In this document: positions 59,182 to 64,000 of the stretch, in pieces
Layout of the letters: each line of letters starts with the position of its first letter
Numbering within the stretch: the first letter of the stretch is position 1
DNA from: an uncultured Desulfosarcina sp.
Lineage (GTDB): Bacteria; Desulfobacterota; Desulfobacteria; Desulfobacterales; Desulfosarcinaceae
DNA length: 64,000 nucleotides
Assembly: GCF_963668215.2 (NCBI RefSeq)
Contig: NZ_CAXXDI010000001.1
Span: forward strand, 1,418,844-1,482,843
Reading direction: 5' to 3'
Notes under the pieces: model-generated
What the model saw: the letters and a program-made list of their open reading frames with translations, nothing else
Told to the model about the DNA's origin: nothing
Database searches by the model: none
Position numbers and translations under genes: made by a program

Positions 59182-59268
59182 GGGTTTCGTTCATAGACCC
59201 GGCATTGACCGGTTTGAACATCGTTGATCAAAACACCGGAAAAGAGCGAGCCCCTCACCTGGAGCCCT

Positions 59269-61107
59269 ATGCCACTGGAAAAGATAAAACGCTCCTCTTT
59301 GAAGAACAAAATCTTCTTCTCCATCACATTGGTGATTCTTCTCATCAGCGTGTTGATCGCCCTTTTTACCCGATGGGTGCTTATCTCCAGCCTGACATCC
59401 GAACTCAAACGGCGGGGGTTGGGAATCGGCCAGAGCATCGCCGAGAGTTGTCGGGGGCCTATTCTGACGGAAGATATTCCACAGCTCACCAGCCTCCTGT
59501 TCGACGCCCGCCTGGGCGAACGCAAGCTTCTCATCGTCTATGTCTACATACAGGACAAAAAGGACCGCGTGCTGGCCCACACCTTCACCCATCCTTTTCC
59601 CCAGGGCCTGACCGATGCCAACCCCCTGCCGCCCGATCGGCCCAACGCCATCCGTTTGCTGAAGATGACGGGCAGCTCCGTTTATGATGTCGCCATCCCG
59701 GTGCTGGAGGGAATCTACCGGATCGGAACCGTTCATCTGGGGGTGGATAAAAACCATATCGATCAGTTGATCGGAAAACTGCGCACCACATTTTTGGGGT
59801 TTGTTTCCACGGTAACCATCATCTTTTTCGTCATCAGCCACGGCCTGGCGCGCTATATCACCCGCCCGATTTCGCAGCTTACCCGGGTTTCCGATGAAAT
59901 CAGCCGGGGGAATTTCAATTTTTCCGTTCCCTTGGAAGATCGCATGGGCGGCGAAGACGAGGTCCGCCAGCTGGCCAGTTCCTTCATGAACATGGCCCAG
60001 CGGATCAAAGAGTCCCAGGTTCGCCTTCAGGAGTCCGAGGCCAAATACCGGTCCCTGTTCAACAGCGGCCCAAACCCCATTTTCGCTCTGGATCAGGACC
60101 GGCACCGTATTCTGGATGCCAACCCCAGGGCCGAAGCCGTGTTCGGCTACGCCCGGGAAGAACTTATCGGACGGCCCTTTTCGGACTTGGGCCCCATTGA
60201 CGATTCGGGCCGGCAGCGCATCGGCGGTAAAAACGAAGAAGTGGCCATCTCCAAGGTACAATATACGAAAAAGGGCGGCAGCCCCATCCACGTCAACGTG
60301 CATGCCATCCCGGCCCGCTATGGCTCCGTTGATGCCCTGATTGTGGCCACCACGGACATCAGCGAAATGGTGGAAAAGGACAGCCAACTGATTCAGGCCA
60401 GCAAAATGACCACCCTGGGGGAGATGTCCGCCGGCATCGCCCACGAAGTCAACCAACCCCTCAACGCCATAAAAATGGGCAGCGAATTTCTGGAATTCAT
60501 GGTCCAGTCCGGAAAGGAGATCCCCAAAGCGGACCTGTTGCACGTGGTGGCGGAAATCAGCGGACAGGTGGATCGTGCCGTGGCCATCATTCAGCGGCTG
60601 CGGGATTTCGGACGCAAATCGGATTTCAGCAAGAACCAGGTGCAGATTAACGACTGTGTGCGGAGCGTTCTGGAGATCATCGGCCGGCAGTTGACCCTGC
60701 AGAACATTCGCCTGGACCTTGAGCTTGCAGACGGAATCGCTCCGGTAATGGCCCACAACAATCGCTTGGAGCAGGTGATTTTCAACCTGCTCACCAACGC
60801 GCGCGATGCCATCGTTCAGCGGCAGGAAAACGGCGACGACGACCTCGATCATTGCATCCGCATCGCCAGTAAACAGGACAACAGGCACGTTCGCCTGACC
60901 GTATCCGACACCGGAGTGGGCATTTCGGAAACGGTCAAGGATCGGATCTTCGAAGCTTTTTTTACCACCAAGCAGATGGGCGAAGGCATGGGGCTGGGGC
61001 TGTCCATCACCAATGAGATCGTCGAGGATTACGGCGGCACCATCCGGATCGGCAGCGGCATCCATGGCGGCACCGCCTTCGTTCTCACTTTTCCGGCCGC
61101 CGGATAA
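59269..61107 (+). CDS. Membrane HAMP-PAS sensor histidine kinase
   Basis: Two TM segments, [26 protein letters not shown]; GGAG RBS. Confidence 0.92.
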
Positions 61108-61137: not shown

Positions 61138-61455
61138 ATGTATCTTCCCCAGGTCTACCAGAAATTCCAGGAACGGTTCCCTGAAGTCTTCAACCATTTC
61201 AAACAGCTCGGCAAGGCAACCCGGGAGGCGGGGCCCCTGGACGAGAAAACCCAGGACCTGATCAAATTGGGCATCGCTGCGGGGGCAAACTCGCGTGGGG
61301 GCGTGATGTCGAATACCCGCAAGGCCATGGCTGCCGGCGCAACGGTTGAAGAGGTAGAACATGCCATTCTTCTGGCAATGACCACAACCGGCTTTCCCAA
61401 CACGATTGCGGCTTTGAGTTGGGTGCAGGAGGTGCTGGCGGAAACGAAAGGCTGA
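61138..61455 (+). CDS. Carboxymuconolactone-decarboxylase/AhpD-like family protein
   Basis: GPLDEKT..LIKLGIA..A..AGATVEEV.HAIL..GFP. Confidence 0.88.
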   Translation: MYLPQVYQKFQERFPEVFNHFKQLGKATREAGPLDEKTQDLIKLGIAAGANSRGGVMSNTRKAMAAGATVEEVEHAILLAMTTTGFPNTIAALSWVQEVLAETKG

Positions 61456-61529
61456 TTGAACCAATAAAAAAATGGCGTGATTGGTTTGACGACAGTTTGC
61501 ATGAAATAGAAAACAGCAAAAATTTTTAG

Positions 61530-61598
61530 CCCTCACCACGGCATAAACTCGGACCGGGGCCAAACTGCGTCCCCGTCCGGTTATGCCGAACGTTATAC
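61530..61598 (+). other. attC-like site 1
   Basis: CCCTCAC (R'' with AAC>CAC)-5-CATAAACT ... GGTTATG-6-GTTATAC; inner CGGAC..GGGG/CCCC..GTCCG stem with extra-helical bases. Confidence 0.75.
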
Positions 61599-61622
61599 AT
61601 CAGCAAATAAGGTGGAAATTCG

Positions 61623-62504
61623 ATGAAAAGTCATAACCAGATGCCGAAATACCATGAACTTATGAACCCACTTCTCGCAGCCCTTCATGAGTTAGGCGGT
61701 TCTGGTTCTATTGAAGAGATCGCACAAAAAGTTTCGGAATTATCTGAATTGCCCGAAGAGGTTTTGAATATACCGCATAATCCGGAAAAAAGTAGTCAAA
61801 CGGAGATCGAATATCGTTTAGCATGGGCTCGCACTTATTTAAAAAAATATGGCATATTGGAAAATTCAGATAGGGGTATTTGGCTAATTGTTCCAGAAAA
61901 ACGTGATGTGAAATCGGTTGATTCTCAAGTCGTTGTAAAAACAGTACGAGACGAACACAAAAAACAGAAAGAAGCTGTCGAAAAAGAAAAAGCATCTGAA
62001 GAAGACACAGATACAGATATTGAAATTCCAGATGAGGCTGAGTCCTGGCGCAGCAGCCTCCATCATGTCCTCATACATGAAATATCACCAGATGCTTTTG
62101 AAAGATTGGCAAAAAGGATTTTAAGAGAGTCTGGTTTTGTACAGGTTGAAGTAACCGGTCGTTCTGGCGATGGCGGCATCGACGGTAAAGGCATAATGCG
62201 ATTAAGTGGCTTGCTAAGTTTTCACGTAATTTTTCAGTGCAAAAAATATAAAGGTACTGTCACCGCTTCAGATATCCGTGATTTCAGGGGCGCAATGATA
62301 GGACGGGCTGACAAGGGGCTGTTTATTACAACAGGCACTTTTACTCGAGATGCCATCCGAGAGGCTACAAGAGACGGTGCGCCACCAATCGACCTCGTTG
62401 ATGGAGACCAACTCGCTGACAAGCTGAAGGAATTGGGCCTTGGAATAAAGAAGGAAATGGTTGAAAAAATTTCAGTTGATACTGAGTGGTTCAAATCAAT
62501 ATAG
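61623..62504 (+). CDS. mrr: Mrr-family (type IV, modification-dependent) restriction endonuclease
   Basis: Mrr_N region (PKYHELMNPLL..RLAWARTYLKK) and catalytic region (FERL..SGDGGIDG..QCKKY); AT-rich. Confidence 0.92.
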   Translation: MKSHNQMPKYHELMNPLLAALHELGGSGSIEEIAQKVSELSELPEEVLNIPHNPEKSSQTEIEYRLAWARTYLKKYGILENSDRGIWLIVPEKRDVKSVDSQVVVKTVRDEHKKQKEAVEKEKASEEDTDTDIEIPDEAESWRSSLHHVLIHEISPDAFERLAKRILRESGFVQVEVTGRSGDGGIDGKGIMRLSGLLSFHVIFQCKKYKGTVTASDIRDFRGAMIGRADKGLFITTGTFTRDAIREATRDGAPPIDLVDGDQLADKLKELGLGIKKEMVEKISVDTEWFKSI

Positions 62505-62505
62505 A

Positions 62506-62578
62506 ATTCAACAAGCAAATTAACTCGGATGCAAATTCCGCTGCGCTCCATTTGTACCGGTTAGTTGCAGCGTGGGAC
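62506..62578 (+). other. attC-like site 2
   Basis: 1 nt after the mrr stop: ATTCAAC-5-AATTAACT ... GGTTAGT-6-GTGGGAC (GTT core altered). Confidence 0.75.
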
Positions 62579-62590
62579 AAAAATGAAGGG

Positions 62591-62845
62591 TCAGTAGTGA
62601 TATCTCAGTTGGGCAATGAGAATCGCATCTTCTGAAACTTTATAAACGAATCGATGTTCGTCATTTATCCGCCTGGACCAGTATCCGGATAGGGCATGTT
62701 TCAATGGTTCAGGTTTGCCAACACCCTCAAAAGGGCTGCGTTTTGTTTCTTTAATGAGGGTGTTGATACGGCGAAGGATTTTTTTTACCGTTTTTTGCCA
62801 ATAGAGGTAATCGTCCCAGGCATGATCTGAGAAGATGAGCCTCAC
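62591..62845 (-). CDS. yoeB: Txe/YoeB toxin
   Basis: AWDDYLYWQ, GKPEPLK..LSGYWSRRINDEHR.VY, C-terminal RYHY. Confidence 0.95.
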   Translation of the reverse strand: MRLIFSDHAWDDYLYWQKTVKKILRRINTLIKETKRSPFEGVGKPEPLKHALSGYWSRRINDEHRFVYKVSEDAILIAQLRYHY

Positions 62846-63093
62846 TCTATAAGTTCCTTTTCATTTCCTTTGCCATTTTCGAGCTGGGCGACCGATTCGA
62901 TCAGACGTCTGGTGTTTTTTGGTGACCGCAACAGGTAGGCTGTCTCTTCAAGGGCTTCAAAGTCCTCAAGGGACATAATGACCACCGATTCCGACGATTT
63001 TCGTGTCACAATTATCGGGGCGCGGTCTCTGCAAACTTTTTCCATTGTTTTCGCAAGGTTTTGCCTTGCAGCGGTATAGGTTATGGCTTCCAT
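62842..63093 (-). CDS. yefM: YefM (Phd) antitoxin
   Basis: MEAITYTAARQNLA..PIIVTR..VIMSLEDF..LEETAYLLRSP.N..RL; GGAGG RBS; overlaps yoeB. Confidence 0.95.
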   Translation of the reverse strand: MEAITYTAARQNLAKTMEKVCRDRAPIIVTRKSSESVVIMSLEDFEALEETAYLLRSPKNTRRLIESVAQLENGKGNEKELIE

Positions 63094-63105
63094 GTCGTTA
63101 CCTCC

Positions 63106-63143
63106 TGTACAGTATGTTGTACAAGTACGTGGTTTTTTGTCAA
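63106..63143 (-). promoter_or_regulatory. yefM-yoeB promoter and operator
   Basis: TTGACA at 63143-63138; two TGTACA palindromes (63106-63111 and 63118-63123) 12 bp apart, as in the E. coli yefM operator. Confidence 0.8.
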
Positions 63144-63154
63144 CGTTTATCTTG

Positions 63155-63240
63155 CCCCAACCTGTCATTTCGCCAGAAATCCAGGGCCGGGTGGCGTGCC
63201 AGGGTCACAGCCTTGGCTTCTGCTGAACTCCACGTTGGGG
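63155..63240 (+). other. attC-like site 3
   Basis: CCCCAAC ... TGCTGAACTCCAC-GTTGGGG; ends extend to an 11-bp perfect inverted repeat CTTGCCCCAAC/GTTGGGGCAAG; L boxes imperfect. Confidence 0.65.
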
Positions 63241-63252
63241 CAAGCGCTCAAG

Positions 63253-63361
63253 GTAAGCGTTCACAGGGTACCGCATCTGCTTTGTTCCCGGGCACTTGAA
63301 GTATGACCAATACGTCGGCGTGCCCGGCGCCTCACATCTGCGGCACCCTGTAAACGCTTAC
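63253..63361. repeat. Intergenic palindromic MITE/REP-like element (copy 4)
   Basis: GTAAGCGTT.ACAGGGT..CCGCA / TGCGG.ACCCTGT.AACGCTTAC; inner CCGGGCAC/GTGCCCGG; minus strand GAGGCG and GTAT-TGGTC-ATAC. Confidence 0.75.
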
Positions 63362-63496
63362 TGGTCAGGCAGTTGCAGCACATTAGGCATTTCAACCCCG
63401 TGAATACGTACCGCTCAAGATACGGATTACCAGGTGGTGACCGGCCATCTTCCTCACTGTTCGGTTATCGAAATATGATGTGGGTTCGGATTTTTA

Positions 63497-63558
63497 TTCT
63501 AACGATAAATAAAGCGACATAGCTGGAACGAAACGCTGACTAAGTTCGCCTGTTGACG
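63497..63558 (-). other. Degenerate attC-like site (opposite orientation)
   Basis: Immediately after the stop of the minus-strand SBP gene: CGTCAAC ... GCTTTAT-TTATC-GTTAGAA; left L box apparently shortened by about 8 nt. Confidence 0.45.
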
Positions 63559-63559
63559 T

Positions 63560-64000
63560 TCACTTGTAATACCCATTTTCGATTCGATCAATAACTCCAT
63601 CCCCACGCATTTCTTTAAGGACGCTGTCAATTTCATCGATTCTGTCTTTGTATGACGAATGTTTGCCCACACACAAATAAAAGGATACTGAAGATAAATT
63701 ATGAGGGAAAATTTTAATCAGAGGATCGTAGCCTTGGCGGTGCATTTCAAAAATAGTCCGTGTGGATAAAATAACAACATCCGCGCGACCTTGAATTAAA
63801 AAAGGGAAGATACTATCGATATCCGATAGCCAGTGGACATTCATATTTTTTAAATGCTGCTGGGCCCATCCGTCTCCGAGATAGTCTACGATCGTATAAT
63901 CTTTAAGTTGCTCAATGGTCGTGATTTGTTCTATTTCGCTGATTTTTGGATGATTTTGCCGAGTAGCAAGTTTAAGTGTAAATACGATGATGGGTTCATT
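63560..64000 (-). CDS. Solute-binding protein family 3, C-terminal part (5' end outside window)
   Basis: Frame open to base 64000 (NEPIIVFT...DYLGDGW...QGRADV...GVIDRI); AT-rich. Confidence 0.8.
   Translation of the reverse strand, partial: NEPIIVFTLKLATRQNHPKISEIEQITTIEQLKDYTIVDYLGDGWAQQHLKNMNVHWLSDIDSIFPFLIQGRADVVILSTRTIFEMHRQGYDPLIKIFPHNLSSVSFYLCVGKHSSYKDRIDEIDSVLKEMRGDGVIDRIENGYYK

Follow-up and report, generated by a model that had tools for sequence, protein, structure and literature searches.

We analyzed a window of 64 kb from the chromosome of an uncultured Desulfosarcina sp. (genome G000, C1:1418844-1482843; the window is this whole stretch of DNA, and bare positions below refer to it). 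The segment at 61530-63240 is most probably a CALIN, i.e., a cluster of attC sites without a neighboring integrase (Cury et al. 2016, PMC4889954). It would consist of an orphan leading attC site (attC1) and two complete gene cassettes, one encoding an Mrr nuclease and the other an inverted YefM-YoeB toxin-antitoxin (TA) pair. We put the probability of this reading at roughly 0.88. The features of the array are as follows (coordinates, strand, description).

61530..61598, plus strand: attC1, the third best match of attC model R2 (see below) in the whole genome
61593..62572, plus strand: Mrr gene cassette, 980 bp, with boundaries set by blastn against independent contigs
61623-62504, plus strand: mrr, 293 aa, with the Pfam domains Mrr_N and Mrr_cat
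62506..62578, plus strand: attC2, the degenerate attC of the mrr cassette
62573..63234, plus strand: YefM-YoeB cassette of 662 bp, whose genes run opposite to the array; homologues are flanked by attC
62591-62845, minus strand: yoeB toxin gene, 84 aa, with a GTG start overlapping the yefM stop (Pfam, TIGR02116)
62842-63093, minus strand: yefM antitoxin gene, 83 aa (Pfam, NCBIfam), with the start read from the list of open reading frames (ORFs)
63106..63143, minus strand: putative promoter/operator of yefM-yoeB, read from the sequence
63155..63240, plus strand: attC3, the attC of the TA cassette

The attC sites were searched with covariance models built from the integrons of other organisms. 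With the integron integrase (IntI) of G000 as a query, we retrieved 80 IntI loci of other organisms, and took seed sites from a crude scan for repeated sites in clear arrays. Among these, 27 aligned well; long attC sites were left out of the seed alignment because they were misaligned by MAFFT. In the seed, the R box and the two inner stems are 89% paired, and the covariation score is 0.407 vs 0.137 in shuffles. The model built from it (R1) recovered 216 sites in the IntI loci. The second model (R2) was built from 85 correct-strand, IntI-linked sites of around 35 taxa, with no site of G000 in the training set. A scan for R''/R' pairs by regular expression and stem served solely to choose the seed sites. 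It was rejected as an attC detector, as it had no power of discrimination in the IntI loci (0.148 hits per kb on the array sides vs 0.135 on the control sides). The specificity of R2 is supported by its matches elsewhere in G000, which form strand-consistent clusters only; in relatives and metagenome contigs, the matches likewise form co-oriented clusters. The search of Rfam gave no matching family here, with matches at chance level only.

We scanned the 64 kb on both strands with filters off. For both models, the three top matches of the window fall in the array, all on the plus strand. With R1, these are 63152-63243 (20.4 bits, rough E-value 0.0015), 61527-61601 (18.3 bits), and 62503-62581 (12.1 bits), ahead of a match at 10.2 bits. 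With R2, they are 61527-61601 (34.6 bits, rough E-value 2.9e-6), 63152-63243 (19.1 bits, 0.017), and 62511-62573 (13.7 bits, 0.36), followed by a match at 11.5 bits. The three attC-like sites of the plus strand that had been proposed in the original prediction, made from the letters of the window alone, are therefore the best matches of the whole window. These matches occupy exactly the three intergenic gaps required by an array of two cassettes. The distance between attC1 and attC3 is 1.55 kb, with attC2 in between on the same strand, which agrees with the spacing by which a CALIN is defined (under 4 kb between two or more attC sites). Another possible site, suggested earlier at around 63498-63558, had no match with E <10 in either model.

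Relative to the consensus cores RYYYAAC (R'') and GTTRRRY (R'), the three sites are preserved to different extents. In attC3, the R'' (CCCCAAC) and R' (GTTGGGG) form a perfect R box of 7 bp. Its bottom strand folds at -21.4 kcal/mol (z -2.7); the R box is paired, and so is the L box, with bulges. The R'' half shows homology to the attC located after the TA cassette of the relatives G004 and G005. The R'' of attC1 is CCCTCAC (61530-61536) and its R' is GTTATAC (61592-61598). Its L boxes, AAAC(T)CGGAC and GTCCGGTT, are well formed, with the bulges on the 5' arm of the top strand, and its bottom-strand fold has -17.9 kcal/mol (z -3.6 to -3.8 vs shuffled). The site attC2 starts 1-2 nt downstream of the mrr stop codon, as had been noticed before. 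Its R'' (ATTCAAC) has a 2-nt gap relative to the GTATAAC of homologues, its R' (GTGGGAC) has GTG where homologues have GTT, and its R2 alignment is local and omits the R box. The L boxes of attC2 are well formed. The strings previously seen to be shared by attC1 and attC2, AACTCGGA and CCGGTTA, correspond to the L'' and L' boxes in the model alignment. Folding of the bottom strand, the lack of which had been named among the grounds for refutation, gave structures better than shuffled for attC1 and attC3, but not for attC2.

To our reading of the sequences, the decisive evidence for cassettes is where their homology to other genomes ends. We fetched the genomic contexts of six Mrr homologues and compared them to the window by blastn. 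In contigs whose Mrr is 84-96% identical, homology is confined to the cassette boundaries expected for an integron. The blocks cover 61591-62573 in L139 (89.8% nucleotide identity), 61591/2-62508 in L135 and L134, and 61604-62572 in L132. Sequence alignments reproduce these limits. In other words, the limits of homology run from the G|TT of the attC1 R' (G at 61592) to the G of the attC2 R' (62572). Upstream of the G|TT point of attC1 the contigs are unrelated, and L139 and L138 carry a different attC (39.6 and 42.4 bits, respectively). In L139, which has the closest Mrr homologue (95% amino acid identity), the gene lies between this attC of 39.6 bits and one of 37 bits that is homologous to attC2. 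Another homologue of attC2 (33.5 bits) is found in G031, a genome of another genus of the same family, where it follows a 92%-identical C-terminal fragment of Mrr. This fragment is inside an array of five attC sites and adjoins a yefM/yoeB-type cassette. Many contigs of the public runs X3, X5, and X8 share the attC2 core (62515-62573), part exactly at 62573, and have varied continuations; three of the four loose ends listed at this position continue with T, restoring GTT. The start and ends of the TA cassette align with attC-flanked copies in relatives. As homology to unrelated genomes ends at the G|TT crossover points, we regard the mrr and TA units as true mobile cassettes. As a side observation, the homology to the Mrr cassette stops right after the attC R'' (GTATAAC) in L134:4862-4890 and L135:4862-4890, where the remainder of the attC is absent, which suggests truncation or recombination at R''.

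The Mrr cassette has a simple layout: a TTATAC start, a Shine-Dalgarno sequence (AAGGTGG, 61609-61615), the ORF, and the attC of the cassette as far as the G of R'. The protein matches Pfam Mrr_cat (2.1e-30) and Mrr_N (2.7e-17), both above the cut-offs, and the PADLOC model mREase_IV for type IV methyl-directed restriction enzymes (2.7e-20). The profile search matched no NCBIfam equivalog for Mrr. The D...QxK motif is present (GDGGID ... FQCKKY) and aligns to the catalytic region of MspJI (PDB 4F0P), the sole match to a sequence of solved structure and a weak one (E 2.4e-4). By family membership, the product is probably a type IV (modification-dependent) restriction endonuclease, with a winged-helix Mrr_N and a PD-(D/E)xK Mrr_cat domain. 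The winged helix would read modified DNA and the nuclease would cut methylated or otherwise modified incoming DNA, e.g., phage genomes. Homologues are widespread: more than 100 protein clusters have 78-96% amino acid identity, across several phyla, with source labels including Margulisbacteria, Lentisphaerae, Desulfobacterium, Proteobacteria, and others. In a Lentisphaerae metagenome-assembled genome, a group II intron reverse transcriptase is located directly upstream of an 80%-identical Mrr cassette (L137:653-2218); this may be an attC-targeting intron.

The families of the TA genes are confirmed as well. YoeB matches Pfam YoeB_toxin (3.3e-39) and TIGR02116 (120.9 bits vs a cut-off of 51.8). 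YefM matches Pfam PhdYeFM_antitox (2e-22) and is above the cut-off for phd_fam, with 118.9 bits for NF008499, just below the cut-off of 121. The genes overlap by 4 nt in the order antitoxin then toxin. In the family, 19 of 64 genomes have homologues of the unit (72-87% nucleotide identity), located elsewhere in the genome. Those of G004, G005, and G042 are flanked on both sides by attC sites of like orientation, and their genes are inverted, as in G000.

The inversion of the TA pair was part of the original prediction and is confirmed. The promoter attributed to the pair is putative. Upstream of yefM, there is a -35 box TTGACA (63143-63138), a TACAAC 16 nt downstream, and a palindrome TGTACA-N6-TGTACA (63106-63123), which we take to be the operator by analogy with yefM-yoeB of E. 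coli. A Shine-Dalgarno sequence (GGAGG) follows at 63101-63105. The TA cassettes of the relatives G004 and G005 retain the TTGACA, the TGTACA palindrome, and the GGAGG. A strict consensus scan called no promoter upstream of yefM, for which reason we only propose that yefM-yoeB may be driven by a promoter of its own, presumably autoregulated. Were the segment to be lost, the stable mRNA interferase YoeB would outlast the labile YefM and the cells would be poisoned, so that the array would be retained.

Both cassettes are accessory, since they are lacking at the syntenic locus of the nearest species, G015 (95% amino acid identity in the kinase upstream of the CMD-family gene, 91-93.5% nucleotide identity in the flanks). 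Homology between G015 and the window breaks off at the CMD stop codon (61457) and is picked up again at 63644; in between, G015 has 978 bp of different DNA. A second relative (run X6) parts from the window after 61459 into a third sequence, and of the 30 other genomes searched in the genus, only 2 yielded Mrr. This speaks against mrr and the TA pair being fixed, syntenic core genes, as had been put forward as a ground for refutation. An empty junction between the CMD gene and the following gene of periplasmic-binding type (SBP gene) was another proposed check. We found a junction free of the cassettes, in G015, but not a truly empty one, as G015 carries other filler there, and its SBP gene is truncated with a replaced 3' end. 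More distant species are not syntenic at this junction, and exact-protein look-ups with CMD and Mrr gave no matches. The region after the CMD stop codon is hypervariable, with three different continuations in close relatives. The mrr cassette has a GC content of 41.8% and the TA cassette 46.8%, vs 57% in the kinase and CMD genes, in agreement with the earlier remark that mrr is AT-rich relative to the genes upstream.

Several observations weigh against the interpretation of the segment as a CALIN. The attC model was built here and is not the curated one of IntegronFinder, and its E-values are no more than approximate. The R box of attC1 has Watson-Crick pairing at just 3 of its 7 positions, as read from the R2 alignment. 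Taken alone, attC2 is not significant (E 0.36 in the window), and its fold is no better than shuffled (z -0.25). The consensus promoter scan found no promoter for mrr. Lastly, the left break of homology is the CMD stop codon, 72 bp before attC1, with no canonical GTT. When we considered this junction as an IntI event at a secondary site, the shared bases were CTGATT. The small cassette array that had been predicted after the CMD gene with no adjacent intI is supported, but its left junction is not that of a canonical insertion at a GTT.

The absence of an adjacent intI also stands, with an addition. Six-frame searches found no IntI or IntI pseudogene within 4-10 kb of the locus, and the nearest weak match to a tyrosine recombinase is around 165 kb away. 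At the scale of the whole genome, the search with TIGR02249 gave a single match above the cut-off, an intact, full-length IntI without stops at C1:6226268-6227206 (464 bits vs a cut-off of 265). It is 4.74 Mb from the array, or 1.8 Mb in the shorter direction should C1 be circular. Beside it are two weak-to-moderate attC sites on the expected strand. Elsewhere in G000, R2 identified seven attC sites at C1:3006000-3016000 (L106), six at C1:5555100-5558100 (L107), three near the end of C2 (C2:145000-147650, L109), and a singleton at C1:3846375-3846438. A single IntI, with few attC sites next to it, thus coexists in the genome with several CALINs.

A multi-copy element encoding tyrosine recombinases lies next to this integrase. 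It spans L009:1570-3800 (C1:6227569 onward), with further copies near C1:4809829, 4817406, and 3704441. The four copies have an identical frame of 344 aa, which is adjoined by an ORF of 401 aa in the L009 copy. The insertion of the L009 copy, at the expected place of attI around 250 bp ahead of the intI start, may have disrupted the genome's own integron. A segment of 140 nt with two ATTAG(G/A)AG(C/G)CCAATTGGGCT(C/T)CTAAT palindromes flanks two copies of the element (L009:1430-1569; C1:4809501-4809640). It is also present, without the element, in the CMD-SBP junction of G015 (L022:11115-11255), i.e., in the same hotspot as the cassette array. We considered this segment (L009:1430-1569) as a candidate attI. 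Since it recurs beside a second copy and in G015, it is more likely tied to the recombinase element.

These data bear on the origin of the cluster. It is possible, if somewhat doubtful, that it was split from the IntI-linked array of the genome when this array was rearranged or other elements were inserted, instead of arising by IntI-mediated insertion at a secondary site. The few attC sites near IntI, interrupted by the multi-copy element, are compatible with such a split, and so are the presence of at least three other attC clusters in the genome and the lack of a canonical GTT at the left junction. However, synteny of the HK-CMD (HK, histidine kinase) and SBP flanks is kept in G015 on either side of the gap, so that a large rearrangement at this locus is less likely, and the array is just 1.7 kb long. 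This concerns the origin only and leaves its interpretation as a CALIN as it is.

How would such a CALIN function at present? In the proposed scheme there is no Pc promoter: mrr, promoterless and preceded by a ribosome-binding site of its own, would depend on read-through transcription of the HK/CMD unit on the same strand, and no terminator was called between this unit and mrr. The cassettes could, in principle, be excised in trans by the distant IntI. We read the array as partly decayed, given the poor pairing of the attC1 R'' and, in attC2, the gap in R'' and the GTG in R'. Because the cores of attC1 and attC2 are damaged, the excision of single cassettes is probably inefficient, and mrr and the TA pair may now behave as a fixed islet of defence plus addiction. 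We tentatively propose, as an idea that may well be wrong, that the loss of a single T in the attC2 R' (GTT to GT-G), the loss of 2 nt in its R'', and the decay of the attC1 R'' locked these once-mobile cassettes at the hypervariable spot after the CMD gene. If true, this would be a natural case of cassette domestication, at a chromosomal hotspot that repeatedly captures mobile DNA.

The opposite view, that the array is fully competent for recombination and works as a satellite of the genome's integron whose mrr and TA cassettes are cut out and rearranged one by one by the distal IntI, seems to us unlikely. It draws on the intact IntI in the same replicon, on the mobilization of CALIN cassettes in trans that was considered possible (PMC4889954), and on the perfect R box of attC3 and the GTT kept in the attC1 R'. 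These points are opposed by the GTG, the R'' gap, and the unremarkable fold of attC2, and by the poor pairing of the attC1 R''. In addition, the contigs of four runs contain no excision joint between attC sites, although contigs drop rare variants. A chance likeness to attC, with common terminators or palindromes between genes as the hairpins, and with mrr and the TA pair as a generic defence islet brought by transposition or homologous replacement of a variable region, is very improbable: the statistical weakness of attC2, the three continuations after the CMD stop in close relatives, and the other mobile DNA at this place (a repeat in G000 and, in G015, sequence flanking the multi-copy recombinase element) fit with it, but it is at odds with three co-oriented top matches at exactly the expected intergenic spots and with homology to unrelated contigs bounded at G|TT points, and is already contradicted by the clear attC arrays that hold the same genes elsewhere, as in L139.

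As a CALIN, the array resembles those already described (PMC4889954). Its attC sites number two or more, share one orientation, and are spaced by less than 4 kb; IntI and its pseudogenes have no match nearby, the cassettes are few and include no resistance genes, and an IntI is encoded elsewhere in the replicon. Half of all the CALINs reported in that study are in replicons encoding IntI. It differs from them in being identified by a home-made model, in the damaged cores of two of its three sites, and in the presence of a miniature inverted-repeat transposable element (MITE) 4 nt after the last site. Restriction systems of types II and IV are prevalent among integron cassettes (Darracq et al. 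2024, 10.1101/2024.07.02.601686). Like the anti-phage cassettes of that work, the mrr cassette is promoterless and carries a compact, single-gene defence system. Unlike them, it is not from Vibrio and validated by experiment, but is a plain full-length Mrr in a CALIN of Desulfobacterales type, known from its sequence. The protein shares with E. coli Mrr the order of the domains (Mrr_N then Mrr_cat) and with MspJI-type enzymes the D...QxK motif in the weak alignment to 4F0P. TA cassettes occur in sedentary chromosomal integrons (Richard et al. 2024, PMC13108822, PMC11023631). The pair described here is likewise of type II, inverted, with a promoter of its own (here putative), and of a kind thought to stabilize arrays. 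It differs from those in being in an array of two cassettes without an adjacent integrase, where stabilization would be expected by analogy.

Hence, all the elements are of known kinds, and the array is real, well delimited, and ordinary. It adds a cleanly delimited CALIN with defence and TA cassettes in a genome of a sulfate-reducer type (Desulfobacterales). Its Mrr cassette is cosmopolitan, which supports the recent view that integrons move compact restriction systems between phyla. The locus will be of use in annotation, and as a natural set of intact and core-damaged attC variants of one cassette; it opens no new question.

The surroundings of the array contain the following features.

59224-61107, plus strand: PAS/HAMP histidine kinase gene (HK), the first gene upstream of the CMD gene
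61138-61455, plus strand: small CMD-family gene, between HK and the variable region
61458..61529, plus strand: filler of 72 bp from the CMD stop codon to attC1, the left edge of the variable region
63245..63411 (core 63253-63404), no strand: MITE-like palindromic repeat, not part of the array
63560 onward: 3' end of the SBP gene, the next gene after yefM

The filler has no match elsewhere in G000 or in the fetched loci. Together with attC1, it may be the tail of an upstream cassette that was lost or had no ORF.

The MITE-like repeat is about 160 nt long (core 152 nt) and folds as a long hairpin (z -4.5). At least 10 copies with 94-99% identity are dispersed across chromosome C1, including C1:1604479-1604630, 1369258-1369421, 2492859-2493010, 894337-894488, and 329688-329839. 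The R'/L' half-site that had been proposed at 63369-63388 lies inside this repeat and is thus no remnant of an attC. In one contig of run X6, the array is complete but 63245-63411 is missing, and 8 bases at the joint are ambiguous, in keeping with a MITE with target duplication. The repeat is also found in L024:2253-2411, directly after the orthologous kinase of the relative G009, and in a metagenome contig of 331 kb (L134:5868-5991). On the other side of the repeat, the SBP gene has a GC content of 38.5%, yet it is conserved in G015 with 91% nucleotide identity.

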